Source of the DNA: an uncultured Actinomycetota bacterium
GTDB taxonomy: Bacteria; Actinomycetota; Actinomycetes; JADGOV01
Reading direction: 5' to 3'
Length of the DNA stretch: 64,000 bases
Assembly (NCBI GenBank): GCA_963814355.1
Contig: CAWFCZ010000006.1
Coordinates: 190,746-254,745 of the forward strand
The position numbers and the translations under genes are program-made. Below, in pieces: positions 1 through 58,163 of this stretch. The number at the start of each line of letters is the position of its first letter. Positions within the stretch are counted from its first letter, which is position 1. Below the pieces are notes generated by a model, which had not been told where the DNA came from, ran no database searches, and was given only the letters and a program-made list of their open reading frames with translations.

Positions 1-408
1 CTGAACCACCTCAAGCCGCACCCCGCCATCGGAGCCGACGCGAACCCGCTGTTCAGCGGACCGCACCACACGAGGCTGACCCGTTCCGGGGTCGCCAAGA
101 TCCTCGCCCGCCACGTGCGAGCCGTCCGGGCCCGCGAGCCCGGCTGGGCTCCCGGACTGCCGGTCACGCCCCATACCCTCAGGCGGAGCCGGGCGATGCA
201 CCTCATCCAAGCCGGCGTCAACCTGATCTACATCCGCGATCTGCTCGGCCACGCTGACGTCTCCACCACCGAGATCTACGCCCGCGCCGACGCCGAGACA
301 AAACGAAACGCGATCGAGAACGCCTACCAGCCGCTCACCCCGGACGCCCTGCCCGACTGGACCTCCGACACCTCTCTGGTCAGCTGGCTCGACACGCTCG
401 GGAAATGA
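1..408 (+). CDS. ritC: Tyrosine recombinase RitC, C-terminal part (5' end outside the window)
   Basis: Frame 1 is open from nt 1. The translation LNHLKPHPAIGADANPLFSG...SWLDTLGK is identical to the C-terminus of 23505-24548. It carries the HTLRRS...LLGH...EIY catalytic box. Confidence 0.85.
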   Translation: MNHLKPHPAIGADANPLFSGPHHTRLTRSGVAKILARHVRAVRAREPGWAPGLPVTPHTLRRSRAMHLIQAGVNLIYIRDLLGHADVSTTEIYARADAETKRNAIENAYQPLTPDALPDWTSDTSLVSWLDTLGK

Positions 409-414
409 CACCGG

Positions 415-505
415 CACCCGGGATTATGCGGACAACGACACGTCAAACCCGTTCCTCACAAGGCGGCCCGGGCCAGCAAGGCGCATAACGCGGCCGTCCG
501 CGTAA
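415..505. repeat. RIT-1 terminal inverted repeat (91 bp)
   Basis: Same sequence as 26863-26953 and the reverse complement of 23408-23498. It contains TTACGCGGAC, GTTATGCGCC and CCGCATAATCC submotifs. Confidence 0.85.
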
Positions 506-1545
506 TGCCGCAGATCGTGCAATGACCAATTCGCGCCCAACACCGCACTGGCGCGGGTGAACATCAACCGGGCGGCGTCGTAACCCAGCGCACGGAACGG
601 CTTGCGCAGCGTCCACCACAACGGCTGGTCCCGACCCGCCGGCACCAAGCCGTGCATCTGCGCCTCGTAGAGCCGCAGCCACACGAACGCGTCCGGCGAG
701 GCCGGCACCTGCTGCAACGCCCGCGTCCCCTTACGGATCACCGTGAGCAACTGCCGGCCGGGGTCCACGTCACCGACCGCGACGCCGAGCAACTCAGCGG
801 CCCGCGCGCCAGTCGAGACCCAGAACGCCACCAGCGCCCGGTCGCGGTGCGAGCCCAGCTGCGCGAAAACCTCGTTGAACCGCTCGTCCGGGATGCAGCG
901 CGGTGCGCGCTGCGCCAGCGTCGGACGGTACCGGCCCGTCCGCTGCGCGACCGGCGCCTCCATCGGGCTGCGATGCACCCGCCGGCCCCGGCTCAACGGG
1001 AACGGGTTCACCATCGGCCCGCTTCCGGCCTCGACATGGAAGTCGTAGAAGCCGCGCAGCACGCTCTCGCAATGCGCGACCGTCGTCGCCGCGAACCGCT
1101 CGCCCGGCCCGCGTTTACCGGTCACCTCGTTCGGCGCACCAGAGGTGTTCGCGCGGGATCGTTCCGGCTGCCGTTCGGGATAGCGCCAGTGCGGCCGTGC
1201 CGGCTTACTTGCGGTCTGCAGCCAACGGCAGAAATCCCGCGCCTCGGCCCGGGTCGCCTGGTCCCACGCGATCTCGACCGCCCACAGGAATCGGAACCAG
1301 CGCAACAGGTCCATGCCATAGGACCGCTGCGTCGCCGCCGAGCGGCCGCACGCCACCAACTCGGCGAAGAACACTCCCGCCGCGCCGATCACGGCACCGT
1401 CCGGGTCCAGCAGGCGGTACGGCTCGAACAGGTTCCCTGTCGCCTCCAACGAGCCCGACAGCGGGACCTTCAACAACGTCAGCTCACGCGGCGAATCGCC
1501 CTCGTTCAACACGAGGCCGCACGCTAGCTCCGCTGTCGCGTCCAA
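506..1545 (-). pseudogene. Tyrosine recombinase/integrase truncated after its HDLRH box by the RIT-1 insertion
   Basis: The ORF 424-1545 has an integrase N-terminal SAM-like region and a Box I (STGARAAELLGV). Native sequence ends at ...ANWSLHDLRH, after which the ORF reads into the RIT-1 repeat. The region carrying the catalytic Tyr is missing. Confidence 0.8.
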
Positions 1546-8957: not shown

Positions 8958-9381
8958 TTATTCGGCGTTGACCTCGGTGATGGCGGCGCGGGCGGCGGAG
9001 GCGTCGACGATCGTCTTGTTCGCCGCGAAGGTGGCGACGAGGGCTTGCAGCGCGAGGTTGTTCACGGCTCTGGGTAGCCCGCGGCTGGTTTGGTGGATCA
9101 GGTCGGCGGGCGTCGTCGCTGAACAGTTGGTCGCTGCGGCCGACGAGTTTGAGGTGGTGGGTGAGGTAGTCCCGGGTCTCGGCTTGGGTCATGCCGGGCA
9201 GCGCGTAGCGGAGCATGATCCGCTGGTCCAGGGCGGCGAACGCGCCGAGTTTGATCCGGCGTCGCAGGGTGGGCTGGCCGAGCAGCAGACCGGTGAAGGG
9301 CGCGACGCTGTCCATCTCGCTGTTGGTGAGCAGACGCAGCTCTTCGAGTTGGTCGGCGGAGGGTAGGTGGGCTTCGTCCAC
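8958..9381 (-). pseudogene. ExeA/TniB-like AAA ATPase fragment (starts at Walker B, 1-nt frameshift)
   Basis: VDEAHL..QLEELRLLTNSEMDS..LLLGQPTLRRRIKLG..LDQRI.LRY..GMTQAETRDYL is present. After LFSDDA one extra C shifts the frame. The restored frame gives ADLIHQTSRGLPRAVNNLALQALV...EVNAE and a stop at 8958. Confidence 0.6.
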
Positions 9382-9461
9382 TTTACCGACCGCGGAGGCC
9401 GGGATTCCCCGTGTTTCCTGCGCTGGAACGAAGCGTACATGTCAGCGACAATCGCTTGCTG

Positions 9462-10103
9462 CTATTGGGACCGCGCGTCGTTGGTTCGCTCTGAATCGCG
9501 CTCCTTCCCCGTGGCGATGTGTTCCGGCGCGGCGAGTTGTGCTTCGAGGTCAGCGATGCGCCGGTCCTGGAACCGCAGGTTGGAGCGGGCGGCTTGGAGT
9601 CGTTCGTCGAGGGTGCGGTTGTCTGCGGTGAGCTGCTGCGCCCGCTGCTTGAGCGTGGTGTTCTCCATGCTGACATGCTGGATCTTGTCTCTGGTCCAGT
9701 GGGATTCGAGATCGCGGATGCGGCCGATGAGTTCGCCGATGCGGCCTCGTTGGGTGAGGATCTCGGCGTTGGCGGCCTTGAGCCCGTCCTCGGCATTGAG
9801 CGCTCGTTCACGCCAGGTCGACTCCTCCCGCTCGCTGCTTCGACCGGTGGATCCCTTGTCCCGCTGAGGGGCTTGCATGGCTGCCGCGTCGATGGCGGCC
9901 TTCGCGTCGGGGTTGCTGTAGAGGAACGTGCGGGACACGGCGGCGCGGCGGGCGAGGGCAGCGACGCTGACCGGCGTCTTCTCTCGGCGTAGGCGGGTGA
10001 TCGCGTCGGTAACGCGGTCGAGCGCGGCCTGGGTGCCACGGCGGCGGGCAGCCAGCGCTGCCGCGGTCCGGGGCTCAGGCCTTTCGATGTCAACGCTTGT
10101 CAT
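9462..10103 (-). CDS. TnpC-like coiled-coil protein of a Tn554-like module (orphan remnant V)
   Basis: MTSVDIERP...TPVSVAALARRAAVSRTFLYSNPD followed by long heptad-like repeats. Same architecture as 16212-16781 and 36790-37379. Its ATG overlaps the stop (ATGA) of an upstream ORF remnant that is cut by the IS3 end at 10251. Confidence 0.6.
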   Translation of the reverse strand: MTSVDIERPEPRTAAALAARRRGTQAALDRVTDAITRLRREKTPVSVAALARRAAVSRTFLYSNPDAKAAIDAAAMQAPQRDKGSTGRSSEREESTWRERALNAEDGLKAANAEILTQRGRIGELIGRIRDLESHWTRDKIQHVSMENTTLKQRAQQLTADNRTLDERLQAARSNLRFQDRRIADLEAQLAAPEHIATGKERDSERTNDARSQ

Positions 10104-10323: not shown

Positions 10324-10653
10324 TCAGGGCTGGAGAAGCTCCTCGATGGTGATGGGCTCGCCGCAGCAGGGGGAGTGCCCGCCGCTGCCGAGGCGACGCA
10401 TGAAGGTGCCGCAGTCTTCGCATCTTTGGGCGCCGAGGAGCCTGGTTTGGCACTCGGGGCATTCATAGATGGTGCCGGCCCGGCGGGATCGGGTGGGTGG
10501 GAGTTCGACGGCCGTCAGGGGCGGAGCGTGCCGCCGGCGCCAAGCGGCCTGGCGGCAGGCGTCGGAGCACCACTGCCGATTCCGGCCCGTGGGCAGCGGG
10601 GCGTCGCAGGCGCCGCAACGTGCCGTTACGATGTCGTTACGCGACGGGGTCAT
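10324..10653 (-). CDS. Small zinc-ribbon protein carried inside IS3 (stop/start overlap with orfB)
   Basis: CGAC...WCSDAC and YECPECQ..RCEDCG..GGHSPCCGEP cysteine pairs. The ATG overlaps the orfB stop (ATGA at 10650-10653). The ORF ends 73 bp before the IS3 terminus. Confidence 0.55.
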   Translation of the reverse strand: MTPSRNDIVTARCGACDAPLPTGRNRQWCSDACRQAAWRRRHAPPLTAVELPPTRSRRAGTIYECPECQTRLLGAQRCEDCGTFMRRLGSGGHSPCCGEPITIEELLQP

Positions 10654-11113
10654 CCGGCCTGCTCCTGGCCGGCCCGCCAGGCCAGTTCGTACTCGGCCGG
10701 GGGCAGATACCCGATCGAGGAGTGCAGCCTGGTCGAGTTGTACCAGTGCACCCAGGAGGCGGTCTCCCGTTCGACTTCGGCCCGCCCGGTCCAGGACCGT
10801 GCTCGGCGGTGGATCAGCTCGGTCTTGTACAACCCGATGGTCGACTCCATCAGGGCGTTGTCCAGGGCGTCGCCGACCGAGCCGATGGAGCCGGCGATCC
10901 CCGCTTCGACGAGCGCGTCGGTGAACGCGATCGACGTGTACTGCTCGGCATCGGAATGATGCACCAAGCCGGTTGCGGTGAACGGGAGTCGGCCCGGCGG
11001 CGGGTGAACAGCGCCTGCTCGAGGGTCGACATCACCAGCGGCGTCGTCTTGGAGCTACTCACCCGCCAGCCGAGGATCCGCCGGGAGAACACGTCGGTCA
11101 GCAGCGCCACATA
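10650..11113 (-). pseudogene. IS3 OrfB (DDE integrase core), C-terminal part, with an internal frameshift
   Basis: VALLTDVFSRRILGW... then HHSDAEQYTSIAFTDALVEAGIAGSIGSVGDALDNALMESTIGLYKTELI...YNSTRLHSSIGYLPPAEYE in a second frame. Confidence 0.75.
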
Positions 11114-13012: not shown

Positions 13013-13072
13013 CCCAGCAGTCTCCTTGCTGAATCAGAGCCTCCACCAGATCCAGGACGGTTCAGTCGTTCA

Positions 13073-13766
13073 GTCGTGGCGGATGCGGGCCCGGCACCGC
13101 CTGCATGAGCCGGAACGTCCGGTCGAGCGGGCCAGTGACATTGACATCGTCGCCGTGCTGCACGCCTGCCGTTCGGCGCGGGACCGGCTGATCGTGTTGC
13201 TGATGGCCCGGGCCGGGTTGCGCCGCGGCGAGGTGTGCGGGCTGCGTCGTAGCGACGTGCACCTGCTCGCCGACTCCGGAGCGTTGGGTTGCGGGGTCGC
13301 TCGGGCGCATCTGCATGTGCTGCGTCGTGAGGGCAATCCGAACGGGGCGTGGGCGAAGTCGCGCCGGCAGCGCAGCGTGCCGTTGGACGTCCTCACCGTG
13401 CAGGCATTCGACACCTACGTGTTCGAGCGGATGAGTGTGCCGCAGGCTGCGGACGGTGATTTCGTGCTGGTGAACCTGTTCCGGGCTCCGCTCGGTGCGC
13501 CGATGCGCCCGGACGCGATCGGTGAGCTGCTCGCCGGTGCCTCGCGACGGGCCGGGCTGGCGCAGGCGTTGCGTCCGCACCAACTGCGGCACGCCTTCGG
13601 TAGCAACGCCGCTGATGCCGGCTGCGGTCTCGACGTGGTCGCCGACCTGCTCGGTCACGCCTCGGTGTCCTCCTCTCAGGTGTATCTGCATCCGGACCCG
13701 GCGCGGCTGCGGGCCGCGGTGGACCTGGTGCCCGGCCCGCGCGAGCAGGCCGGGGTGCCCCGGTGA
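13073..13766 (+). pseudogene. TnpA-like tyrosine recombinase, 5'-truncated
   Basis: Identical to the C-terminal 230 aa of 31430-32602 (ARAGLRRGEVCGL...HQLRHAFGS...LLGHASVSSSQVY). Confidence 0.8.
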
Positions 13767-16215
13767 GCGGCGCCGCGTCGGCCGCGACGACACGATCCGC
13801 GGCCGCGGCCGCGGTTGTCTTCGACCACGTGCTGGCCGGGGTGGGATTGGACGGTCCGGCCGCGCGCCTGGCTGGCCTGCTCGAGTGTGGGTTTCTCATC
13901 GAGGCCGGCTGGGACCCGGTGACGCGGGTGCTGTCGCTGCCGGCCGCGCATCCGTTGCTGGGCCGGCCGCTGTGTCGGGTGGGCGGCTGTTCGACGACCA
14001 TGCATGGCAGGACCGGCGGGCTGTGCTGGCACTGCTTCACCCGGTTGGGTGCGCAGGGTCTGAGCGAGCAGCAGATCGCGGCGTCACCCGAGCTGCCATC
14101 GTTGCCGACGCGTCGACCGGCCGGCTGTGCGGTGCCCGGTTGTGAGCGCATGTCACCGATCCCGCGCTCGACATTGTGCGTGCCGCATCAGCGCCGGCTG
14201 CGTCGCACAGCGGGTGTCTCGCTGGAGCAGTTCCTTACCGACCCGCGGCTGCGTCCGCTGCCCGCGCTGGGACCCTGCCGGGTCGCCGCTTGCAGCCGCC
14301 GCGCCGAATCCGAACATGGCTACTGCGCGACCCATTACGTGCGGTGGCGCACCACGGTCACCACCGATCCCGTTGCCGACCAGCGGCACTGGCAGCTGAC
14401 CCAGCCGGCGGTCTCGCAGGGCGGTGAAGTGAGCCTGCGCGGATTGGCGCCGTTGGTGGTGGTCGAGGTGTTGTTCGGCGTTCAGCAGCGGGTCCGCGGC
14501 GGCGCGCAGATCGTTGAGGTGCCGCTGCGGGCGGTCTGCAACATGCTGCGCCGTGAGCAGGCGACCCAGATCGCGGCGTGCCCGGCCGAGCGCGTGACAG
14601 CGGGCAAGCCGGCCCGGCAGTTGCTGACCGCGTTCGTCTGCGATGTCCGCCGCGCGCTGGCCGATCCCGGTCGTGAGCGGGCCGGCGACAGCTGGGATCT
14701 GGCTCTGTTCGGTCACCGCGGGCGGCTGTCGTTCACCGGTATCAGCCAGCCCTGGCTGGCGTACGCCGCCAAAGCGTGGGCGGGTGAGCAACTGCCACGC
14801 CATCGCGGCGCCGGGGCCAGCAACGTGCGGATCAAGGTCAATGCGGTGGCCCGGTTGTCGGAAAGCCTGCGGGTTCGCGACGACCACGGACTATCACCCG
14901 ACCGGCTGGACCGGCCCCGATATCGAGGCGTTCCTCAACCGGCTGGCCTACCTGGAGTCCACGGGCACGATCAGCCGCTACCACCGCAACGTCATCTGCC
15001 GCGGCGTTCGGGCCGCGCTGTCCGGGATCCGCGCCCTGGGCCTGACCCGGCCCGGTCGGGTCGCCGCCGGGCTGCCCGGCGACTTCGCGATCGGGCGTGA
15101 CGACATCCCCGCCGAAGCGCACCGCGGCGAACCCGGCCGCGACCTCCCGCCGGAGATCATGACGGTGTTGTGCGCGAACCTGGACGGCCTGCGGCCGGCC
15201 GAACTCAAGGCCGCGATCCAGATCGGCATCGACACCGGCCGGCGCCCCGAAGACCTCCTCAACCTGCCGCTGGACTGCCTCCACCGTGACAAAGACGGCG
15301 GGCCCGTGTTGGTCTATGACAACGCCAAAGCCGACCGGCTCGGGCGCCGTCTGCCGATCAACGAGGCGACCGCCGCGGTGATCACCGCCCAGCAGTCGCG
15401 TGTGAAGCAACGCTTCCCCGCCACCCCGGCCGGTGAGCTGAAACTGCTGCCCTCGCCACGGCGAAACCCTGAACGGGAACCGGCGATGGGTCGACACGTT
15501 GGGTCCGCTGCATAGCCGTGACGGCGCCGAGTTCGACAAGTCCAAGATCGTCCCGTACGCCTATCGGCATAGCTACGCCCAGCGCCACGCTGATGCCGGC
15601 GTCGGGATCGACGTACTCGCCGAACTCCTCGATCATCGCAATTTGAACGTCACCCGGGGGTACTACCGGGTCGGGGAAGACCGGCGCCGCGCCGCCGTGG
15701 ACACGGTGACCGCGATGAGTTTCGACCGCCACGGCAACCGGGTCTGGCGCGAGGCCGCCGCCCTGTTGGACTCCGAACACGCCCGCTACGCCGTCGGCGA
15801 AGTCGCCGTCCCCTACGGACGCTGCACCGAGCCGTCCAACGTCGCCGCCGGGGGCGGCGCCTGCCCGGTCCGGTTCCGCTGCGCCGGCTGCGACCACTTC
15901 CGCACCGACGTGTCCTACCTGCCCGACCTCACCCTCTACCTCGACGACCTGCTGCAAACCCGTGAACGTCTGGCCGCCGCCATCGACGGCGTCGACGAGT
16001 GGGCCCGCGCCGACGCCACCCCCAGCCAGCAGGAGATCACCCGGATCCGGCGGCTCATCGGCCGCATCGACGGAGATCTCGGCCACGCCAGTGACACCGA
16101 ACGCGCCGTCATCGACGAGGCAGTCACCGTGATGCGCCGCCACCGCGCCGCATTCCTCGGCATGCCCAGCACCCGGGCGACCGCGCCCGACGCCTGTCCG
16201 GAGGCCACCGCATGA
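13763..16215 (+). pseudogene. TnpB-like large tyrosine recombinase with two frameshifts
   Basis: Three ORF pieces (13763-15100, 14643-15515, 15499-16215) are colinear with the intact 825-aa homologue at 34316-36793. Shared features are the Cys modules, YAYRHSYAQRHADAG and CPVRFRCAGCDHF. Confidence 0.75.
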
Positions 16216-16781
16216 CCAGCAACGCTCCCGCCGCCGAGCACAGCGAGCGCGCCACAGCAATGCGACAAGGCCGGCAAGCCGATTCCACGCGGCGACGCCA
16301 ACGCGTCCTCGCCGCGCTCAACCGCGCCGCCACCGACGGGACCGAGATCAGCGCCGCGAGCATCGCCCGTGCCGCCGGGGTCGATCGCAGTTTCCTCTAC
16401 CGCCACCGCGACCTGCTCGCCCAGATCCACGCCCTGGAGGCAACCCCACCGCCGGCCGGGACCGGCCAGGGGCCCGGCGTCACCCGCGCCTCGCTGCACG
16501 CCGACCTGCTCGCCGCCGGCGAACGAGCCGTCCGGCTGACCAGCCGGATCCGGCAACTGGAAACCCGCCTGTCCGAGACGCTCGGCGAGCAGGCCTGGCG
16601 CGAGTCCGGGCTCGGCGTCCCCGCCGACCTCGACGCCCTCAACCAGAAGATCAACAACCTCGAGCAGCAGAGCATCGACCTGCGCCTGCAACTCGTCGAA
16701 CGCGATCAGGACCTCGCGGCCGCACGCGCCGCCAACCGCGAGCTCATGGCCCAACTCAACACCCCGGCGCGACACCGGTAA
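16212..16781 (+). CDS. TnpC-like coiled-coil protein
   Basis: 189 aa. Start overlaps the tnpB stop. ISAASIARAAGVDRSFLYRHRD followed by a long coiled-coil-like tail. Confidence 0.7.
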   Translation: MTSNAPAAEHSERATAMRQGRQADSTRRRQRVLAALNRAATDGTEISAASIARAAGVDRSFLYRHRDLLAQIHALEATPPPAGTGQGPGVTRASLHADLLAAGERAVRLTSRIRQLETRLSETLGEQAWRESGLGVPADLDALNQKINNLEQQSIDLRLQLVERDQDLAAARAANRELMAQLNTPARHR

Positions 16782-16900
16782 CTCCCGGCGGGTCGTTCTT
16801 GCACCACACCTGTCGCGCACGCTATCGTTCCACGATCAGCTTATGAGCAAAGGGAAAGCTCCCGAGTCGCAGCCCCATACGCAAGCTGACCCCTGGAGAA

Positions 16901-17271
16901 CACGCCCGGCTCGGTCACCCACGGCCGGTGCACCCGCACCCGCCCCGCCCGATACGCCCGCCGCACCTGCAGCACCGCCCGGCGGTCGACCGCTCCGAAC
17001 CGGCATAACCCAACCCCAGCAGCTTCTCGTGCACCACATCAGCGCGGATCCGCCCGTTCGAGCGGTCCATCCACTCCTCCACCTTCGGGAGGAACCCGTC
17101 GACCAACCTCGGCCGGGCAGCCGGACGCGGCGGCGGCCCACCAGCCTCCCGCTCGGCGACATAACGGGCCACGGTGTGATGCGAACAGCCGGCCAGCTCG
17201 GCGGTGGTCCGCAACGACCCGGTCAAATCGAACGCTTCCAATATCTCCATGATCTCCCCTGCAGACTTCAC
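16901..17271 (-). pseudogene. istA: IS21-family IstA, N-terminal HTH fragment cut by element X
   Basis: MEILEAFDLTGSLRTTAELAGCSHHTVARYV...LPKVEEWMDRSNGRIRADVVHEKLLGLGY. In a second frame ...RVRVHRPWVTEPGV abuts the X terminus at 16900. Confidence 0.65.
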
Positions 17272-21214: not shown

Positions 21215-22091
21215 ATGAGCGTGATGACAGGGAATGACGGCTTGCTGCCGGCGGTGGAGCCGGGTGGTGAGCCGGCTGGTCCGCCGCGGGTGTCGGGGCG
21301 GCAGCTGCGGGAGTTGCTGGCTGATGATCTGTGGCTGGATGAGTTGATCGATCGGGCCGGTGAGGGTGGGGTCCGGTTGACCGGGGAGGGCGGGTTCCTC
21401 CCGGAGTTGGTGAAAGCGGTCCTGGAGCGCGGGCTGCAGGCGGAGCTGACCGGCCACCTGGGTATGAGCCTGGTGATCCGGCTGGTCGGGGGTCGGGGAA
21501 CTCGCGGAATGGTGGCACGCCGAAGACGCTGTCGACGGAGGTCGGCCCGGTCGGGATCGACACCCCGCGGGATCGGGTTGGGTCGTTCGAGCCGCGGTTG
21601 GTGCCGAAGGGGCAGCGCCGCTTGGGCGGCCTGGACGAGATCATCATCTCGCTGTATGCGGGTGGGATGACGGTCCGGGACATCGGGCATCATCTGCGGC
21701 GCACGGTGGGCACCGAGTTGTCCCACGACACCATCAGCAAGGTCACTGATGCGGTGGTGGAGGAGGTGAAGGCCTGGCAGACCCGGCCGCTGGATGAGAT
21801 CTACCCGATCGTCTATCTGGATGCGCTGGTGGTGAAGGTCCGGGACGGGCATCAGGTGCGGAACAAGGCGGCGCACCTGGCGGTCGGGGTGGATCTGGAC
21901 GGCGTGAAGCACGTGCTGGGGATCTGGGTGCAGTCCACCGAGGGGGCGACGTTCTGGGCGGGGGTGTGCGCGGAGTTGGCGAACCGCGGGGTGCGGGACA
22001 TTCTGATCGCCTGCTGCGACGGCCTGGAGGGCCTGCCGGCGGCGATCGAGGCGACCTGGTCCAGGGTGACGGTGCAGACCTGTGTGGTGCA
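21215..22091 (+). pseudogene. IS256-family transposase, N-terminal ~290 codons (1-nt frameshift near 21470)
   Basis: ...LQAELTGHLG then, in another frame, YEPGDPAGRGSGNSRNG..PKTL.TEVGPVGIDTPRDR.GSFEPRLVPKGQRRLGGLDEIIISLYAGGMTVRDI...VYLDALVVKVR...VTVQTCVVH. Confidence 0.8.
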
Positions 22092-22175
22092 TTATGCCGA
22101 TCTTCGGATTATGCCGCTGTGGTCGCGGGATCCGTTGCGGGGCAGGGGGTTCGGCTTGGCGAGGTCGGCATAATC
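22092..22175. repeat. RIT-2 terminal inverted repeat (ritA side)
   Basis: The exact reverse complement of 27195-27278, and the same as 56149-56232. TTATGCCG / CGGCATAA submotifs occur three times. Confidence 0.85.
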
Positions 22176-22223
22176 CGGTGAGTTGATCGACGCTTGCCTC
22201 TTCCGTCTGGAGAGGAGAGCGTC

Positions 22224-23207
22224 ATGGTCAAGGTGTTGTCGTCGTTCGTGCGCGGGCCGTTGGAGCGACACGTCACGGGATTGGCCGAGGAACTGCTGCG
22301 GCAGGGCTATTCGGGGACCTCGGCCGCGCAGCATGTGTGTTTCATCGCCCATCTGGATCGCTGGATGAGCGCCGAGGACGTCGAGATCGGCGGCTTGAGC
22401 GGTCCGGTCATCGAGCGCTATCTCGCGCGGCGGCGCTCGGCGGGCTATGTGCAGTACCGGTCGGTGAGAGCGCTCCGGCCGCTGTTGGACTTCCTCGCGC
22501 CGCTTGGCGTATTGCCGGTCGCGTCGCTGGTTCCGCCGGGCCCGGTAGAGGGACTGCTTGTCCGCTACCGCGATTACCTGGTCGGTGAGCGCGGCCTGAC
22601 GCAGGGGACTGCGCGCGGCTACGTGGACTTGGTCCGCCCGTTCGTCGCCACCCGCGCCCACGGCGACGTGCTCGACCTGACCGGGATCACGGCGGCAGAC
22701 GTCAACGGCTTCGTGCTGTCGGCCTGCCCGGGTCGGGCTGTCGGGTCGGCGAAGCTGATCGTCTGCGCGCTGCGGTCGCTGCTGCGCTGGCTGCACTTGA
22801 CCGGGCAGATGTCGGTATCGCTGGCGAGCGCGGTGCCGTCGGTGGCGGGCTGGCGATTGTCGAGCCTGCCGACGGGCTTGGAACGGGGAGAGCTGCGCGG
22901 GCTGCTCGGCTCGTGTGATCGGCGCACCCGCACTGGGCGTCGGGACTACGCGATGATGCTGCTGCTGTCCCGGCTCGGGCTGCGCGCCGGGGAGGTCGCC
23001 CGCCTCGGGCTGGACGACATCGACTGGCGACGCGGCGAGATCGCAATCCGCGGCAAGGGCAACCGCGCCGAACGGCTGCCGCTGCCGGCCGACGTCGGGG
23101 CGGCGATCACGGCCTACCTGCGCGCGGGCCGGCCGACCACCGCCGAGGGCCGCAGCGTGTTCGTGCGGGTGCACGCCCCGCACCGGGCGCTGACCACGGG
23201 CGGGGTC
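22224..23207 (+). pseudogene. ritA: RitA of RIT-2, first ~328 codons, fused to a ritC tail by deletion
   Basis: Identical to 56281-57264 up to ...HRALTTGGVT. The sequence then diverges, lacking the AHRLRHTAATAM box present in copy 2. Confidence 0.75.
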
Positions 23208-23407
23208 ACCGTCGCGGCGCTGCGCCGTTATCAGCGGCTGCGCGACCAATCCGCGTCAGCGACCGGGACCGTGGCGTTCTTCGTCTCCCTGGCCGGAACC
23301 CGGCTGATCTACTGCAACGTCCACAACGCGTTCCACCGGCTCGTGCGCCTGGCCGGGCTCACCGCACGGTCAGCGTCGTGCCGCCCGCGCATCCACGACC
23401 TGCGGCA
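23208..23407 (+). pseudogene. ritC: RitC of RIT-2, internal segment ending at HDLRH where RIT-1 is inserted
   Basis: ...FFVSLAGTRLIYCNVHNAFHRLVRLAGLTARSASCRPRIHDLRH, then the RIT-1 terminus. Confidence 0.6.
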
Positions 23408-23498
23408 TTACGCGGACGGCCGCGTTATGCGCCTTGCTGGCCCGGGCCGCCTTGTGAGGAACGGGTTTGACGTGTCGTTGTCCGCATAATCCCGGGTG
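23408..23498. repeat. RIT-1 terminal inverted repeat (ritC side)
   Basis: Reverse complement of 26863-26953 with a few mismatches. Confidence 0.85.
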
Positions 23499-23504
23499 CC
23501 GGTG

Positions 23505-24548
23505 TCATTTCCCGAGCGTGTCGAGCCAGCTGACCAGAGAGGTGTCGGAGGTCCAGTCGGGCAGGGCGTCCGGGGTGAGCGGCTGGTAGGCGTTCTCGAT
23601 CGCGTTTCGTTTTGTCTCGGCGTCGGCGCGGGCGTAGATCTCGGTGGTGGAGACGTCAGCGTGGCCGAGCAGATCGCGGATGTAGATCAGGTTGACGCCG
23701 GCTTGGATGAGGTGCATCGCCCGGCTCCGCCTGAGGGTATGGGGCGTGACCGGCAGTCCGGGAGCCCAGCCGGGCTCGCGGGCCCGGACGGCTCGCACGT
23801 GGCGGGCGAGGATCTTGGCGACCCCGGAACGGGTCAGCCTCGTGTGGTGCGGTCCGCTGAACAGCGGGTTCGCGTCGGCTCCGATGGCGGGGTGCGGCTT
23901 GAGGTGGTTCAGGTAGTCGGCGAGGAGGCGGGCCGTCGGGTCCATGACGGGGACGTAGCGGATCTTGGAGCCTTTGCCGTGGATGCTCACGGTGATCGGT
24001 GTGGAGCGGCGGACGTCGGCGACGTCGAGGTCGCAGAGCTCTTGGACGCGGGCGCCGGTGTCGTAGGCCAGGGCGAGCAGAACGGTGTCCCTGACCGCGC
24101 GTGTGGTGGCGGTGCCTGGTTCGGCGAGCAGGGCCTTGATCTCCTCGCCGGTCAGGTGCCCGAGGTCCGGGGCCGGGGTGTTCTTCTGCCGGATCGCCAG
24201 TACGTGAGTGATCTGGTCGAGGTGGGCGGGCTGTTCGACGGCGGTGTAGCGGCAGAACGACTTGATCACCGCGAGGCGCTGGTTGCGGGTGGCCGGCGAG
24301 CAGCCGCGCTCGGTCTCCAGCCAGCCGAGGAACCGCAGGACCCGTGAGCGGTCGATGTCGACGAGGCGTAGCTTCTCGGGCGGTATGTGCTCGACGTCTT
24401 TGAACCAGGTGAGCAGCAGCTTCATCGCGTCCCGGTAGGAGGCTATGGTCCGGGCCGACGCGGCGCGTTCCCCGGCCAAGTGGTCGGTGAAGAACTTCGT
24501 CAGCCACCGCCCGGCCGGATCCGCCGGTGGCGCCGGCCGCGGGCTCAC
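23505..24548 (-). CDS. ritC: Tyrosine recombinase RitC
   Basis: GTG 24548 overlaps the ritB stop (GTGA). Box I is DTGARVQELCDL and box II is HTLRRSRAM...LLGHADVSTTEIY. The longer ORF reaching 24731 overlaps ritB and is unlikely. Confidence 0.8.
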   Translation of the reverse strand: MSPRPAPPADPAGRWLTKFFTDHLAGERAASARTIASYRDAMKLLLTWFKDVEHIPPEKLRLVDIDRSRVLRFLGWLETERGCSPATRNQRLAVIKSFCRYTAVEQPAHLDQITHVLAIRQKNTPAPDLGHLTGEEIKALLAEPGTATTRAVRDTVLLALAYDTGARVQELCDLDVADVRRSTPITVSIHGKGSKIRYVPVMDPTARLLADYLNHLKPHPAIGADANPLFSGPHHTRLTRSGVAKILARHVRAVRAREPGWAPGLPVTPHTLRRSRAMHLIQAGVNLIYIRDLLGHADVSTTEIYARADAETKRNAIENAYQPLTPDALPDWTSDTSLVSWLDTLGK

Positions 24549-25510
24549 GACCGGTCTCCGGCCGGTTCGGGGATGACGTAGCCGAAGCGGACCTGGGCCT
24601 TGGCCATCACCTCGGGGTAGGCGTCCGCGGTCAGCCGCAGGTAGTACTGGGTTCCGCGAAGATCGGTGTGGCCCATGTAGCAGGCCAGGTAGGGCAGCAT
24701 CACGGCCAGGTCGGCGTTGTCGGTGGCCCACCGTCGCAGGTTGGCGACGGCGAAGCCGTGGCGCAGCGAGTGCGGATGCGGGCCACCGGTGAAGTGCGGG
24801 ATGTCGGCGTCGGCGAGGTAGCCGCGGAAGCGCAGGTAGACGGTCGACTGGTTGATCGGCCTTCCTCCCGCCCTGCTGTAAAACACGTGGTCGCTGGGTT
24901 CCGGGGCCGGGTGCGCGGCCGCGGTGTAGGCGTGCAGGGTGGCGGCGAGCCGGGCGGTGACCGGGATGGTCCTGCCCTCACCGTTCTTCGAATCGCGGAT
25001 CTGCAGCGTCGCGGCGCTCGTGTCCACGTCCGGCAGGAGCAGGTTCAGCGCCTCGGACACCCGCAGCCCGGCGCCGTAGAGCACCCGGAACAGGACCGGG
25101 TCGACCAGCGCCTTGTTCGAGAAGCTCGACATCGGCTGGGAGTCGATCGCGGTGAACAACCGCCGCGTCTCGGCGTCGGTGAACACATACGGCGGCTGAT
25201 GGGGGACCCGCACCTGGGTGGCCGCGTCCGGGAGATGCGCATCCCAGCCAGCGGCTCGGGCATGCTCGGCCAGTTGCCGCAGCACCAACTCGTTGCGCCG
25301 GACCGTGGAGGCCCGCAGGTGTCGGCCGTAGCGGAACCCGTCGACCGCCTCCTTGGTGATCGAGGCGTCCGGGTAGCCCTGCCGCCGGCAGTGCTCAACG
25401 AACTGGCGCAGCACCCGCTGTGGGACCTTGAACCGGTACCCGCCGGCGTGCCGCAGCGCGGCAAGCTCGGCGACCAGCTCCGGCAGCGTCGGTTCAGGTG
25501 TCGCGCTCAC
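24545..25510 (-). CDS. ritB: Tyrosine recombinase RitB
   Basis: 321 aa. GAGLRVSEALNL, HSLRHGFAV, YMGHTDLRGTQYY. There are 4-bp overlaps with both neighbours. Confidence 0.85.
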   Translation of the reverse strand: MSATPEPTLPELVAELAALRHAGGYRFKVPQRVLRQFVEHCRRQGYPDASITKEAVDGFRYGRHLRASTVRRNELVLRQLAEHARAAGWDAHLPDAATQVRVPHQPPYVFTDAETRRLFTAIDSQPMSSFSNKALVDPVLFRVLYGAGLRVSEALNLLLPDVDTSAATLQIRDSKNGEGRTIPVTARLAATLHAYTAAAHPAPEPSDHVFYSRAGGRPINQSTVYLRFRGYLADADIPHFTGGPHPHSLRHGFAVANLRRWATDNADLAVMLPYLACYMGHTDLRGTQYYLRLTADAYPEVMAKAQVRFGYVIPEPAGDRS

Positions 25511-26772
25511 CGGCGCTCACCGGCCCGGTCGCCTTCGGTGACGTCTTCGACGTCCAACGCGCAACGGCGTAGCCGTTCGACGTCGAAACGCAGGTAGTAG
25601 GCCTGGGTCGTGTCGCTCGAGGCGTGTCCCAGCACGGCCGACACCACCGGGATCGGGGTGCCTCCGCCGATCATCGCGACCGCGAGCGCGCCGCGCAGGG
25701 AATGCATCCCGCAGACCTGGCCCGGCGGGAACACGATCCCGGCCCGGGCGGCGTGCCGCGGCAGCCGGGAGGCGACCGAGGATGAGGACCCGAACACGTC
25801 GAACGGGTGCCGATGCTTGATGAACACCTTCGGGCAGGCCGTCTCGGGCCGGCCGTCGCGGATGTAGTCAATGATCGCCCAGCCGACGTCGTCGAGCAGC
25901 GGCAGCCGCAACGGCCGTCCGGTTTTCTGTTGGACGATCGTGACCTGTTTCGCGCGCCAGTCGAGATCGCCCAGTTCCAGGCCGCGCAGATCCGAGATCC
26001 GCAGCCCCAGCCGGGCGGTCGTCAGGATCATCGCGTAGTCGCGCTTCCCGGTGGCGGACTGGCGGTCGATCCTGGCCAGTAACTGGCGGATCTCCTCCGC
26101 GGTCCACAGGTGCGGGTCGGACTCGTGACGGACGTGGCGGTGCGGCGGCAGACGATCTGCCAGGCCGGCCGGTGCCTGCCCCGCCGCGGCCAAGGCGCCG
26201 AGGAAGTCGGCCAGGCATGACCTCAGGGACGCGATCGTCGTGCGTCGCAGCCCACGTTGACGCAGCAAGAACCCGGACACGTCACGCACGCCGAGCGCCG
26301 CGAGATCGTCGATGCCCATCTCGACCAGGTAGGCCAAGAACCGGCTGGCCGCCCTGTCCTTCGTGACCACGGTCGCCTCGGCGTTGCCGCGACGGCGGCA
26401 CGAGGCGAGGTAGTCGTCCCTGAGCTGACGGAACCTTGCCGGACACCCGTCCTTCGCCGGGATCACTGGGCGGTCGACGTCGACCGCCCGGCCAGCCAGC
26501 ACCTCCGCCATCAACAGCACCGGCCGACGAACGGCCTGGACAGCCCTGTCTTTGACCGGCTCACGCAACGCCGCCAACCGGACGCCGGTCTGGTTCGCGA
26601 TGAAGTCGATGCACACCAACTCGCTTGCGGTGTCCACGCCGCGACCCGTCAAGAAAGCAGCGAACCGTTCCAGCACGACCTGGTACCTGCAGACCGTGTA
26701 CTCATCCCGCCCCGCATCGCGCACCACCGCCACCACGCGGTCCGCGGCGTCCCTGACACCAACATCGCCCAT
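25507..26772 (-). CDS. ritA: Tyrosine recombinase RitA
   Basis: 421 aa. TARLGLRISDLRGL, HSLRGALAV, VLGHASSDTTQAYY. It is the first gene of the trio. Confidence 0.85.
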   Translation of the reverse strand: MGDVGVRDAADRVVAVVRDAGRDEYTVCRYQVVLERFAAFLTGRGVDTASELVCIDFIANQTGVRLAALREPVKDRAVQAVRRPVLLMAEVLAGRAVDVDRPVIPAKDGCPARFRQLRDDYLASCRRRGNAEATVVTKDRAASRFLAYLVEMGIDDLAALGVRDVSGFLLRQRGLRRTTIASLRSCLADFLGALAAAGQAPAGLADRLPPHRHVRHESDPHLWTAEEIRQLLARIDRQSATGKRDYAMILTTARLGLRISDLRGLELGDLDWRAKQVTIVQQKTGRPLRLPLLDDVGWAIIDYIRDGRPETACPKVFIKHRHPFDVFGSSSSVASRLPRHAARAGIVFPPGQVCGMHSLRGALAVAMIGGGTPIPVVSAVLGHASSDTTQAYYLRFDVERLRRCALDVEDVTEGDRAGERR

Positions 26773-26862
26773 CGCGAATCACCCTTCATCCAGAATCGGA
26801 ATGAACAGGCGATTCTTCGCCGAGCAGGCGCAGCGCTCAGCACGCCGGGAAGCTGGCCCCGA

Positions 26863-26953
26863 CACCCGGGATTATGCGGACAACGACACGTCAAACCCGT
26901 TGGTCACAAAGCGGCCCGGGCCAGCAGGGCGCATAACACGGCCGTCCGCGTAA
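26863..26953. repeat. RIT-1 terminal inverted repeat (ritA side)
   Basis: See 23408-23498. Confidence 0.85.
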
Positions 26954-26985
26954 TGCCGGTTATGGGGAATTCCCCATAAGCGGCA
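26954..26985. repeat. 32-bp 13-6-13 palindrome abutting the RIT-1 end (TGCCGGTTATGGG GAATTC CCCATAAGCGGCA)
   Basis: Read directly. There is one arm mismatch. The outer 6 nt of the right arm (GCGGCA) equals the hexamer found at the other junction (23402-23407). Confidence 0.8.
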
Positions 26986-27196
26986 CACCACCGCAATGCG
27001 CCTGCTCCGAGCTGGCGTCGACACCAGCGTGATCGCCCTCTGGCTTGGCCACACCAGCGTCGAAACCACCCAGATCTACCTGCACGCCGACCTCGAACTC
27101 AAGGAGAAAGCACTTGCCAGAACCAAACCACCCACCGCCCGAGCAGGACGCTACAAACCGCCCGACACGCTCATCGCTTGGCTCGAAGCCCTCTGA
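26986..27196 (+). pseudogene. ritC: RitC of RIT-2, C-terminal 69 codons (resumes after the RIT-1 insertion)
   Basis: (H)TTAMRLLRAGVDTSVIALWLGHTSVETTQIYLHADLELKEKAL...IAWLEAL, with the stop inside the RIT-2 inverted repeat. Confidence 0.65.
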
Positions 27197-27278
27197 TTAT
27201 GCCGACCTCGCCAAGCCGAACCCCCTGCCCCGCAACGGATCCCGCGACCACAGCGGCATAATCCGAAGATCGGCATAA
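27195..27278. repeat. RIT-2 terminal inverted repeat (ritC side)
   Basis: Exact reverse complement of 22092-22175. Confidence 0.85.
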
Positions 27279-27310
27279 TGCACCTTATGCCGACGTCGGC
27301 ATAAGGTGCA
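27279..27310. repeat. 32-bp perfect 13-6-13 palindrome abutting the RIT-2 end (TGCACCTTATGCC GACGTC GGCATAAGGTGCA)
   Basis: Read directly. The outer 6 nt (GGTGCA) equals the target hexamer at 22086-22091. A second copy lies at 54981-55012. Confidence 0.85.
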
Positions 27311-27560
27311 CCTGATCCGCGCCTCGATGAGGTTCGTGTCCTACACCGACCGCAAGCGGGTCGCCGCCGCGCTCCGCGCCGTCTACACCGCGCCGACGGT
27401 GGAGGCGGCGGAGACCGCGCTCCTCGCGTTCGGCGAGTCCGAACTCGGCCGGCGCTATCCGGCGACCGTGGCGACCTGGGAGCGGGCGTGGGAGCGGTTC
27501 ATCCCGTTCCTCGCGTTCCCGCCCGCCGTCAGGAAGATCATCTACACCACGAACAGCATC
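27311..27560 (+). pseudogene. IS256-family transposase, middle segment
   Basis: (V)HLIRASMRFVSYTDRKRVAAALRAVYTAP...FPPAVRKIIYTTNSI continues ...QTCVVH from 22091 and is followed by ESLNFQLRK at 38476. Confidence 0.8.
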
Positions 27561-27681: not shown

Positions 27682-28295
27682 GTGTTCGTTCAGCGGGTGG
27701 TGCTGCCCGACTCGCGGCGTGAATCGTGGACGGTGGTCGGTGATGATGCGGCGCCGATCGAGCCGGTGGAGCGGTATCTGGCGTTCTTGACCGACGTGGC
27801 CCGGTCACCGACACGGTGAAGGCTTACGCGCATGATTTGAGGGACTGGTTCGGGTTCTTGGCCGGCCGGTCGACGGACTGGCGCCAGGTGCGGCTGGAGG
27901 ACGTCGGCGAGTTCGTCGCCTGGCTGCGGCTGCCGCCGGCGGCCCGGGACGGCCGGGTGGCGGTGCTGCCGTCGGTCGGCGGGCATTGCACCGAGGCGAC
28001 GATCAACCGCAAGTTGTCGGCGGTGTCGGCGTTCTACCAGCACTCGGCGCGCAACGGTGTCGAGCTCGGGGACCTGCTGCGGACCTGGCAGCCGGCCGGT
28101 CGTCGCGGCAGCGGCTGGCGACCGTTCCTGCACCACATCAGCAAGGGTCGACCGGCGGCGCGGCGGGCGATCCGGTTGAACAGTGCGCGCAAGCATCCTC
28201 GGGTCCTCGGCCCGACCGAGGTGCAGGCCGTGTTGGACGCCTGTGATCGGCTACGCGACAGGCTGCTGTTCGCGGTGCTTTATGACACCGGGATG
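27682..28295 (+). pseudogene. W recombinase, part 1 (frameshift near 27812), ends at Box I
   Basis: VFVQRVVLPDS...PVERYLAFLTDVARSPT / VKAYAHDLRDWFGFL...DRLLFAVLYDTGM, then the Y terminus. Confidence 0.65.
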
Positions 28296-28414
28296 TTCTC
28301 CAGGGGTCAGCTTGCGTATGGGGCTGCGACTCGGGAGCTTTCCCTTTGCTCATAAGCTGATCGTGGAACGATAGCGTGCGCGACAGGTGTGGTGCAAGAA
28401 CGACCCGCCGGGAG

Positions 28415-28984
28415 TTACCGGTGTCGCGCCGGGGTGTTGAGTTGGGCCATGAGCTCGCGGTTGGCGGCGCGTGCGGCCGCGAGGTCCTGATCGCGTTCGA
28501 CGAGTTGCAGGCGCAGGTCGATGCTCTGCTGCTCGAGGTTGTTGATCTTCTGGTTGAGGGCGTCGAGGTCGGCGGGGACGCCGAGCCCGGACTCGCGCCA
28601 GGCCTGCTCGCCGAGCGTCTCGGACAGGCGGGTTTCCAGTTGCCGGATCCGGCTGGTCAGCCGGACGGCTCGTTCGCCGGCGGCGAGCAGGTCGGCGTGC
28701 AGCGAGGCGCGGGTGACGCCGGGCCCCTGGCCGGTCCCGGCCGGCGGTGGGGTTGCCTCCAGGGCGTGGATCTGGGCGAGCAGGTCGCGGTGGCGGTAGA
28801 GGAAACTGCGATCGACCCCGGCGGCACGGGCGATGCTCGCGGCGCTGATCTCGGTCCCGTCGGTGGCGGCGCGGTTGAGCGCGGCGAGGACGCGTTGGCG
28901 TCGCCGCGTGGAATCGGCTTGCCGGCCTTGTCGCATTGCTGTGGCGCGCTCGCTGTGCTCGGCGGCGGGAGCGTTGCTGGTCAT
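28415..28984 (-). CDS. TnpC-like coiled-coil protein (identical to 16212-16781)
   Basis: Identical 189-aa translation. Confidence 0.7.
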   Translation of the reverse strand: MTSNAPAAEHSERATAMRQGRQADSTRRRQRVLAALNRAATDGTEISAASIARAAGVDRSFLYRHRDLLAQIHALEATPPPAGTGQGPGVTRASLHADLLAAGERAVRLTSRIRQLETRLSETLGEQAWRESGLGVPADLDALNQKINNLEQQSIDLRLQLVERDQDLAAARAANRELMAQLNTPARHR

Positions 28985-54985: not shown

Positions 54986-55012
54986 CTTATGCCGACGTCG
55001 GCATAAGGTGCA
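54981..55012. repeat. Second copy of the RIT-2 32-bp palindrome
   Basis: TGCACCTTATGCCGACGTCGGCATAAGGTGCA, followed immediately by the IS1595 insertion. Confidence 0.85.
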
Positions 55013-55013
55013 C

Positions 55014-56141: not shown

Positions 56142-56148
56142 AGGTGCA

Positions 56149-56232: not shown

Positions 56233-56280
56233 CGGTGAGTTGATCGACGCTTGCCTCTTCCGTCTGGAGAGGAGAGCGTC

Positions 56281-57794: not shown

Positions 57795-58163
57795 GTGCGC
57801 CACGAGGCGCTGGTGCGCCGTGAGGCGCTGGAAACCGAAGGAGGTGCAAGTCCTTCTCGCCGGGTTGTCGCAGCAGCCCGGTAGGAGCTGAGCGCAGTCC
57901 GAGCCGGGAGACGCCGGGGAGGGCGGGAAGCAGCGCTGACAAAGCCGGGACGGCCTGGTACTGCCAGACGGGTCGGGCCCGGCGAGCGAGATCAGACGGT
58001 ATACGAGAGTGGACTTTCGCACTTTCCCGATGATGGCTGGCTGATGTAGCGCCGGGGTTGCCGGTGCTGGCTTCGCGCGAGACACACCCCCCTTGATCCG
58101 TGATTCGGCGCCTGCGTCGCGAGACCCTCTGTCTGCGTAAACGCAAACAGAGAGAAGAATGGC

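Follow-up and report, generated by a model that had tools for sequence, protein, structure and literature searches.

RIT elements are widespread across bacterial phyla, and how they move has been open since 2009, with no target, defined ends, intermediate or laboratory transposition of a RIT reported before. They have been found in the transposase gene of Tn6049 and in radC, and in 'complex combinations' with truncated rit genes, and their inverted repeat and the palindrome overlapping it 'do not fit' the usual recombinase sites (Van Houdt 2012, PMC3414803). Exonuclease-resistant RIT DNA with palindromic ends and no circle junction led to hairpin intermediates being proposed (Nielsen et al. 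2017, PMC5737581), the Rit proteins have been classed as 'simple', Xer-like tyrosine recombinases (YRs) (Smyshlyaev 2021), and target specificity was not tested and transposition never reproduced (Idola et al. 2023, PMC10214605). A rule for RIT targets was not found in the searchable literature, which did not cover Ricker et al. 2013. Here we analyse a 64,000-nt stretch of DNA (the window) from an uncultured Actinomycetota bacterium (assembly GCA_963814355.1, contig CAWFCZ010000006.1, positions 190,746-254,745, forward strand), in which two copies of an element that we call RIT-1 lie within YR genes. Very probably, RIT-1 is an active RIT element of ~3.57 kb that integrates site-specifically into the DNA of box II (H-D-L-R-H) of other YR genes, its targets appearing to be mostly ritB- and ritC-like genes of other RITs together with phage-type integrases.

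Two copies of RIT-1 at box II codons

RIT-1 consists of three adjacent YR genes on one strand, all matching PF00589 (E 5e-21 to 9e-29), with a 4-bp overlap of ritA and ritB (25507-25510) and an overlap of the ritB stop with ritC in GTGA if ritC starts at 24548. The encoded proteins measure 421, 321 and ~347 aa, and the first and third carry SAM-like domains, which would suit the gene order expected of a RIT; RitB homologues from annotated plasmid trios match the middle gene. Members of the family span 3,350-3,640 bp from tip to tip. RIT-1 has the features that define RITs, namely the trio, short gene overlaps, size, inverted repeats and identical intragenomic copies. It resembles the elements described by Van Houdt et al. 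2009 and 2012 and Ricker et al. 2013 in the overlapping ritA-ritB-ritC trio, the length of ~3.5 kb, the inverted repeats and the palindrome at one end, as well as in its identical intragenomic copies and the frequent location of such elements in other mobile elements. The features of both copies, the second of which lies in another RIT element (RIT-2), are as follows.

1-408, plus strand: 3' part of ritC of RIT-1 copy A, cut by the window edge, with HTLRR at 172-186; identical to copy B
409-505, plus strand: ritC-side terminal inverted repeat of copy A, ending ...GTCCGCGTAA
506-511, minus strand: overlap (crossover) box GCGGCA of site 1, an Arg codon plus the CA common to the target His codon and the element tip CATTA
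512-519, minus strand: left arm of site 1, CACGATCT
512-1545, minus strand: site-1 target, the N-terminal 344 codons of a YR gene, ending ...WSLHDL(R), with Pfam PF02899 and PF00589 (20-133/172)
22086-27310, plus strand: RIT-2 copy A, host of RIT-1 copy B, with boxes GGTGCA at 22086-22091 and 27305-27310 and the palindrome TTATGCCGACGTCGGCATAA at 27285-27304
23212-23401, plus strand: upstream half of the site-2 target, a RitC-like part of the RIT-2 deletion derivative, ending ...PRIHDL
23394-23401, plus strand: left arm of site 2, CACGACCT
23402-23407, plus strand: overlap box GCGGCA of site 2, at the palindrome-free junction
23403-23526 and 26835-26958: terminal inverted repeats of copy B, 124 nt, 88% identical
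23408-26953, minus strand: body of copy B, TTACGCGG...CCGCGTAA, 3,546 bp
23505-24548, minus strand: ritC, probable GTG start at 24548, longest open reading frame (ORF) to 24731; PF00589 E=9e-29
24545-25510, minus strand: ritB, PF00589 E=8e-24; box II HSLRH (CAC TCG CTG CGC CAC) at 24758
25507-26772, minus strand: ritA, PF00589 E=5e-21 and a SAM-like domain; box II HSLRG
26954-26959, plus strand: inverted spare overlap box TGCCGG (reverse complement CCGGCA)
26960-26979, no strand: perfect 20-bp palindrome TTATGGGGAATTCCCCATAA, read as two inner (predicted) recombinase-binding arms
26980-26985, plus strand: overlap box GCGGCA of the palindrome-bearing junction, a direct repeat of 23402-23407
26986-27197, plus strand: downstream half of the site-2 target, (H)TTAMRLLRAGVD...LGH...YLH and stop, PF00589 133-169/172, RitC-like

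Both copies adjoin CACGAYCTGCGGCA, in two unrelated YR genes. Window positions 1-519 are the reverse complement of 23394-23912 with T/C at 514 as the sole difference, and the copies are identical across all 505 element bases that they have in common; from 520 on the sequences are unrelated, and this abrupt end of the likeness shows two element copies beside different DNA rather than one duplicated segment. Just two matches to the 22-nt string CACGAYCTGCGGCATTACGCGG are present in the window (498-519, minus strand; 23394-23415, plus strand), with 0 expected from 100 dinucleotide-preserving shuffles. The host ORFs at both sites (506-1545, minus strand; 22194-23407, plus strand) are YRs in which the PF00589 match covers profile positions 20-133 and 7-133 of 172, respectively, and the right flank of copy B (26981-27197) picks up PF00589 again at position 133, whilst the two host proteins have no significant similarity to each other (BLASTP E=0.07). 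The sequence-only reading of this stretch, which had placed the same 14 nt at the end of RIT-1 in two unrelated YR genes and denied that the sites were one duplicated segment, is borne out on both points: each gene is cut at PF00589 position 133, and identity ends after 14 nt amid unrelated upstream DNA and proteins. Its statement that insertion destroys the HxxR box does not hold, since the HxxR residues persist in the upstream fragment; what the target loses is all that lies downstream, including His/Trp-III and the Tyr nucleophile. Its description of the site-2 host as the ritC remnant of RIT-2 is right for the RitC-like 3' part and wrong for the ORF as a whole, a chimera with ritA fused at 23211.

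On the ritC side of copy B the target runs straight into the element (...ATC CAC GAC CTG CGG CA/TTACGCGG, where a slash here and below marks the point of joining), whilst on the ritA side TGCCGG, the palindrome, GCGGCA and C ACC ACC GCA ATG... come one after another behind the tip ...CCGCGTAA, the interrupted ORF going on beyond the palindrome as (R)HTTAMRLLRAGVD...LGH...Y. The 6-bp GCGGCA is thus found at both junctions of copy B, and the continuation of the ORF across the element gives ATC CAC GAC CTG CGG CAC ACC ACC as the target before insertion. The boundary as first drawn needs refining: it is a 6-bp overlap rather than a blunt end, one of the two junctions has a 20-bp palindrome, and the element is symmetric and inserts both ways.

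RIT-1-family insertions in other genomes

All counts in this census are among the matches listed (158 loci, L001-L158; 858 kb), of which 38 came from a protein-guided scan of one-genome-per-species contigs and at least 120 from metagenome contigs scanned for the pattern of the element tip. With the tip pattern ...CATAAC-N4-CCGTCCGC-N-TAATG, 198 tips were classified as follows, 184 of them falling into the first three classes when the 4 short ends are set aside.

Class A: 85 ends (84 unique flanks), the flank reading [H/Y]-x-x-R in the junction-fixed frame
Class B: 72 ends (and 4 short; 70 unique), the tip followed by 4 nt, a 20-bp palindrome, 4 nt and CAY..., continuing as YR box II
Other: 27 ends (25 unique), with neither pattern
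Too short: 10 ends, not classifiable

The element is thus found next to the same motif far beyond the window. The 84 unique upstream flanks read [H/Y]xxR in frame with synonymous variation (CAY GAY CTN MGN), most commonly as HDLR (47), HTLR (7), HDFR (5), YDLR (4) and HVLR (3), and nearly all of the 70 unique B flanks begin with His and continue as YR box II, mostly HTFA.. or HSFA... An [H/Y]xxR motif precedes a random position in the same sequences by chance in 0.55% of cases, as against 85 of the 112 palindrome-free flanks that could be classified. PF00589 was matched by 37 of 40 diverse A-flank ORFs, one of which, examined in detail, ends at position 133 like the genes in the window, and in all 21 complete elements with one A and one B end the flanks are the N- and C-terminal parts of one YR gene. 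An empty site was found for L071, where an uninterrupted paralogue, 95% identical to the occupied gene, reads ...CHLFR/HTMATLML; comparison of the empty TGT CAT CTG TTT CGG CAC ACG ATG with the occupied TGT CAC CTG TTC CGG CAT TAT GTG GAC GG shows that the motif is target DNA and that the element begins within or just after CA. With both suggested checks, on further flanks and on enrichment in HxLRH codons, having turned out in its favour, the proposal that this transposon homes to a conserved recombinase motif now has the support of ~150 independent flanks.

The polarity of the palindrome is strict: it always lies on the His (downstream) side, with no exception in 84 A and 70 B flanks, whilst the orientation of the rit genes is unbiased (~11 versus 11 among the oriented loci of L001-L038). 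We accordingly rejected the palindrome as a fixed part of the ritA side of the element, as it occurs at either side. The pair L007/L008 was dropped as proof of inversion in situ, because a host element present in two copies would account for it just as well. At two palindromes on unrelated contigs (L031, ~633-660; L133, ~940-962) the palindrome is cut near its centre by an unrelated TTATCTG... sequence. Among A-flank ORFs of at least 110 aa (n = 64), the best match to the Rit proteins of the window was RitB in 25, RitC in 20, RIT-2 RitA in 1 (the window's own chimeric ORF) and none in 18, a classing that is approximate since it used four reference proteins only; from these counts the main prey look like rit genes of other RIT families, followed by other integrases.

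In the logo of the A flanks (n = 84), C and A at -12 and -11 are (near-)invariant, followed by Y at -10, G at -9 (67/84), A at -8 (65/84), T at -5 (80/84), M at -3, G at -2 (84/84) and CA at +1 and +2, which gives CAY GAY CTN MGN CAY as the preferred site. In the 858 kb, the strict motif CAYGAYCTNMGNCAY occurs 44 times at RIT junctions and 7 times free, the free sites always being in RitB-like genes. When any second codon is allowed, 76 sites of this relaxed motif are occupied and 182 are free, so that recognition extends beyond CTGCGGCA, as the sequence-only reading had cautioned. The free relaxed sites include all of the family's own ritB copies (CAC TCG CTG CGC CAC), HRLRH of RitA-like genes and HQLRH of a Tn554-like unit in the window, and sites of the HxLRH type without Asp are mostly free. 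Arg codons of the AGR type (AGG, AGA) make up 36% of occupied HxLRH sites and 13% of free ones, an excess that is unusual for high-GC actinobacteria and hints either that certain DNA is preferred in the overlap or that the element leaves sequence of its own behind.

Within the window, the Tn554-like unit (13026-16781; a YR at 13026-13766, long ORFs with a YR C-terminus and DUF6262) is held by a 3.83-kb perfect inverted repeat (13073-16902 / 28294-32123). Its HQLRH box (CAC CAA CTG CGG CAC) is free in both copies, the unoccupied CAACTGCGGCAC that had been pointed out in tnpA of these two units standing at 13581 and 31604.

The element's own genes stay off this target, as had been claimed from the codon strings of the window, which we confirmed (ritA CAT TCC CTG CGC GGC, ritB CAC TCG CTG CGC CAC, ritC CAT ACC CTC AGG CGG). 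The avoidance holds family-wide in 70-80 members, none of which encodes HDLRH: box II is HSLRG in 68 of 70 RitA, HSLRH in 70 of 70 RitB and HTLRR or HVIRR in 75 of 80 RitC proteins, so that RitA and RitC are without the His codon that supplies the invariant CA and RitB is without the Asp codon. This pattern is consistent with immunity to self-insertion, and could also be plain conservation within each subfamily.

Junctions, integration route and alternative explanations

Joining in the RIT-1 family falls in a 6-bp box NMGNCA that corresponds to the Arg codon plus the CA of the His codon. The palindrome-free junction has the form target-left / NMGNCA / TTAxGCGGAC... and the palindrome-bearing junction the form ...GTCCGCxTAA / TGNCKN / 20-bp palindrome / NMGNCA / target-right. 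The three 4-nt boxes (before CATTA, after the palindrome and in the reverse-complemented spare) all read N-[C/A]-G-N and are followed by CA. Flanking boxes are identical in 8 of 21 complete elements (1.8 expected, P=0.00015) and unequal in 13, which does not fit target duplication by staggered cuts, and a simple 6-bp target duplication was rejected on this count. The outer arm GTCCGCATAA and the inner arm TTCCGCATAA, which is one half of the palindrome, are near-identical inverted repeats around the 6-bp box, giving the family a core consensus of TTCCGCATAA-NMGNCA-TTATGCGGAC with a target overlap (NMGNCA) of like composition; in RIT-2 the arms of the core are perfect (TCGGCATAA-GGTGCA-TTATGCCGA). 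Of the palindrome variants, 51 of 70 are perfectly symmetric, symmetry being kept by paired changes. Judging from these alignments, the junctions appear to hold the core site expected of conservative tyrosine recombination, with inverted arms and an overlap in common with the target.

We propose that the joined ends would form two mirror-image, dif-like cores (9-bp inverted arms, 6-bp spacer) with the palindrome in common as their inner arms, and that a circular or fold-back intermediate would recombine with the target via either core by conservative YR strand exchange, needing the G..CA positions of the overlap and tolerating heterology elsewhere. Such tolerance, known for Tn916, CTnDOT and Tn554, would leave flanking boxes that are related yet often different, and the use of either core with an asymmetric target would place the palindrome on the His side, the rit genes in both orientations and an inverted spare box at the B junction. 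Comparison of target arms with element arms gave no convincing similarity, so that a single member of the trio, perhaps RitA, may serve the target arms exclusively. The intermediate, the order of strand exchange and the binding partners and roles of the Rit proteins are what we infer from this geometry. A conserved catalytic motif in other mobile elements would offer such an element a harmless, widespread and horizontally travelling landing site, and its use would disable a competitor.

A single-stranded or hairpin route, like that of integron attC sites or of CTX phage at dif, with one strand exchange followed by replication, is a possible though doubtful alternative to the double-stranded exchange set out above. 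It would suit joined ends that form a perfect long palindrome, palindrome variants that keep their symmetry (51/70), overlap boxes that are often heterologous, the exonuclease-resistant RIT DNA without circle junction of Nielsen et al. 2017 (PMC5737581), and a fold-back in L122 described below. A symmetric palindrome is explained equally well by two inverted protein-binding arms, and sequence data do not discriminate between the two. This alternative bears on the mechanism only and leaves target specificity untouched.

Several points weigh against site-specific integration of RIT-1 into box II codons. Loci were recruited via the presence of the element, so that the occupancy figures are biased, and the majority of loci come from metagenomes, as assembled genomes or as contigs. 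Seven HDLRH sites stand empty. With one motif encoded by every target, coding constraint and recognition of the DNA itself are not fully told apart by the logo. Some 13% of ends (25 unique) are found elsewhere than at YR box II; an indel, truncation of the palindrome or membership of another family accounts for some of these ends but not for the rest. Three elements are palindrome-bearing at both ends and one is palindrome-free at both, which needs secondary recombination between copies. The only end-palindrome-end junction, a perfect 124-nt fold-back at a contig start (L122, 1-124: tip, GCGG, palindrome, CCGC, tip), may represent the junction of a circle, the end of a hairpin or an artefact of assembly, and the sequences examined held no direct evidence of movement or of an intermediate.

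The ends found elsewhere, together with the modest information outside coding-constrained positions and the preponderance of mobile-element genes, cost-free to the host, among the targets, would be expected if targeting were loose (e.g. any ...G..CA) and purifying selection spared only insertions in dispensable genes. This explanation is nevertheless improbable, because selection cannot put 85 insertions at one codon boundary, with one polarity, in genes of ~1 kb; rit and Tn554-like genes at the same loci are just as dispensable, yet their HSLRH, HRLRH and HQLRH boxes are largely free, whereas the strict motif is occupied in 44 of 51 cases. Still less probable is a regulated gene switch in which RIT excision restores the recombinase gene, as in skin or nifD elements. 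Precise recombination between the two 6-bp boxes would indeed restore an intact ORF, yet the interrupted genes are numerous, unrelated and spread over many taxa, the two boxes frequently differ, the element lies in either orientation, and other RIT families strike transposases and intron reverse transcriptases with no conserved host benefit apparent.

That the shared 14 nt are the element's own terminus, part of a longer inverted repeat, might be read from the repeat finder, which extends the identity of copies A and B to 519, and from the inverted repeat of copy B, which starts at 23403, inside the 14 nt. This view is already refuted by the empty site, an uninterrupted paralogue that has the motif without the element, and by flank diversity, the 12 nt varying over 84 flanks at third codon positions and even in the second residue. 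In addition, T/C at 514 is a synonymous third position, the far end of copy B continues the same ORF, and only CA (here CGGCA) is common with the inverted repeat, as a crossover box predicts. Duplication of one segment or chance, suggested by a window full of repeats, has next to no probability given identity that stops after 14 nt beside unrelated upstream DNA and proteins, a 22-nt junction string with 0 expected in shuffles and a pattern that repeats in ~150 independent flanks.

Other RIT families and comparison with known systems

The host of RIT-1 copy B, RIT-2 copy A, is itself an internal deletion derivative, in which ritA (identical to 56251-57268) is joined at 23211 to a RitC-like 3' part and ~1.9 kb is missing relative to a full RIT. 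It cleanly splits an IS256/Mutator-family transposase gene (21364-22091, 27305-27560) at TCVV/HLIR with a junction layout like that of RIT-1, with GGTGCA at both junctions and TGCACC as the spare box. Nesting in the window is thus three levels deep, with RIT-1 in RIT-2 in an IS256-type transposase gene. A second copy of RIT-2 (54987-56146) has its palindrome junction on the ritA side, beside an IS256-type fragment of 98% identity, with ritA at 56251-57501 and a DDE_5 transposase downstream (58100-59776), and an IS1595-family insertion sequence (~55024-56141; transposase 55040-56119) lies exactly in its terminal overlap box.

When plasmids were searched at the DNA level with the full-length element, two distant Rhodococcus matches were all that emerged, whilst a protein search with RitB reached other families. 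The inverted repeats of plasmid RITs were located by a blastn-based search, which found none in L165 and L166 of the nine plasmid RITs examined; seven of the nine sit in mobile-element-type genes. For most entries in the following list, the two flanks gave an uninterrupted ORF once rejoined in silico.

RIT-2 of the window: Mutator/IS256 transposase, at TCVV/HLIR, GGTGCA at both junctions, 20-bp palindrome; rejoined ORF PF00872 E=1e-94
Rhodococcus plasmid RIT (L159): group II intron reverse transcriptase (RVT_1 and GIIM), at the Gly-Gly codons of TPQGG, overlap ACCACC
Allorhizobium pTiS4 RIT (L161): group II intron reverse transcriptase (RVT_1 and GIIM), at the same Gly-Gly codons, VPQ/GG/VLSPLLSNI
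Bacillus plasmid RIT (L162): intron reverse transcriptase, one flank only, starting LLNI..YADD
Pseudomonas plasmid RIT (L163): IS66 transposase, at VCDDFAG/GYKAGF; rejoined ORF E=3e-56
Paraburkholderia plasmid RIT (L164): IS66 transposase, at VCDDY/SGY, one flank read by eye
Mesorhizobium plasmid RIT (L167): IS66 transposase gene, split per annotation, position not mapped
Cupriavidus necator pHG1 RIT (L160; 3030-3061, 6559-6599): annotated integrase, at ...WHVQPSTTER/YLGY, overlap GCGCTA, 32-bp perfect palindrome
Family in L019 (~430-520) and L114 (~10580-10660): IS3-type transposase genes, at PNQ.W..DI/, with T as the next residue
Family in L018 (~9380-9480) and L048: IS701-type (DDE_5) gene, at ...DETGFLKS/ (flank read in L018 only)
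L061: YR, three codons upstream of the RIT-1 site

The Pseudomonas and Paraburkholderia RITs sit at the same IS66 motif, CDD(F/Y)xGY, and those that target intron reverse transcriptases (L159, L161, L162) belong to distant families in three phyla, the Bacillus element adjoining, on its one readable side, the region of the enzyme that the other two split at PQGG. The C-terminal fragment of the pHG1 target gave no Pfam match, the YR label coming from the NCBI annotation and from motif spacing (HDLR ... WH + 9 = Y), by which its site would be the codon of the catalytic Tyr. In L114 a palindrome without a RIT body lies, unexplained, between the N-terminal halves of two IS3-type genes. In L164 (~6556) and L167 (~6553), an annotated 'integrase + IS91-family transposase' unit starts exactly where the palindrome is expected and ends alike in both (...actaaaccgc / ...actaacccgc); it may be an element that targets RIT tips.

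With one to three cases for each other family, the generalisation is a strong lead rather than a result, and we lean slightly towards RITs as a class being parasites of other mobile elements, each lineage recognising the DNA of a conserved, often catalytic, motif. All RITs might then integrate via the same twin dif-like core in the palindromic end junction, and the need for three recombinases might reflect a division of labour between element arms and unrelated target arms. If the pattern is true, RITs would be a general class that parasitises mobile elements and builds nested structures like that of the window, which would explain annotations of a 'truncated integrase or transposase next to three integrases' and assembly breaks in actinobacterial and proteobacterial genomes. 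RIT-1 would be a case of a mobile element that uses YRs and knocks out the YR genes of its rivals whilst its own three genes stay off-target. The defined 15-bp target, 6-bp crossover box and pair of core sites make RIT mobility experimentally tractable, and motif-directed, orientation-free integration by simple Xer-like recombinases could interest genome engineers.

Among known systems, Tn554, SE and GInt elements are like RIT-1 in that several YR genes act together, insertion is site-specific without true target duplication, and a 6-bp junction sequence is carried from the old site to the next; in Tn554 this 6-bp sequence moves with the element. They differ in that their ends are asymmetric, their att sites on the chromosome number one or a few, their orientation is fixed and they have a further protein that is no recombinase (TnpC, Srap or GinD), whereas RIT-1 is bounded by long inverted repeats, has a junction with a palindrome, inserts either way round and uses a target that encodes a protein motif in many genes. 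RIT-1 is accordingly no Tn554-like transposon, given its three normal-sized YRs, long inverted repeats and many targets, and no classical transposon with target-site duplication, the flanking 4-nt boxes being identical in 8 of 21 elements only. The coupling sequences of Tn916 and CTnDOT reflect YR exchange over a short, possibly heterologous overlap, in which CTnDOT requires no more than a conserved dinucleotide beside the point of cleavage, much as the RIT-1 family has an invariant CA and G in its overlap. Elements that exploit Xer, such as CTX phage at dif, resemble RIT-1 in their dif-like geometry of short arms and a 6-bp central region. Tn916, CTnDOT and CTX phage differ in relying on one recombinase or on host XerCD and in targeting AT-rich sites or dif.

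A likeness in landing-site strategy links RIT-1 to the 'res hunters' Tn5053/Tn402, IS1111-type elements in integron attC sites, homing endonucleases, inteins and group II introns at the codons of catalytic motifs. By using a conserved sequence of another mobile element or an active site, such hunters find targets in new hosts at low host cost; their enzymology (DDE transposases, homing nucleases, retrohoming) is different, and we know of none whose enzyme is aimed at the catalytic box of the very superfamily to which that enzyme belongs. RIT-1 belongs to neither group, that of Tn554 and Tn916 or that of res-hunting and homing elements. What is newly defined relative to known RITs is a precise target in the codons of YR box II, an overlap box of 6 bp, a pair of dif-like cores with a 9-6-9 layout and insertion regardless of orientation. 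Overall, whilst the class itself is known, its precise targeting of rival recombinase genes at the codons of their catalytic box, and the junction rules that go with this, appear to be undescribed.

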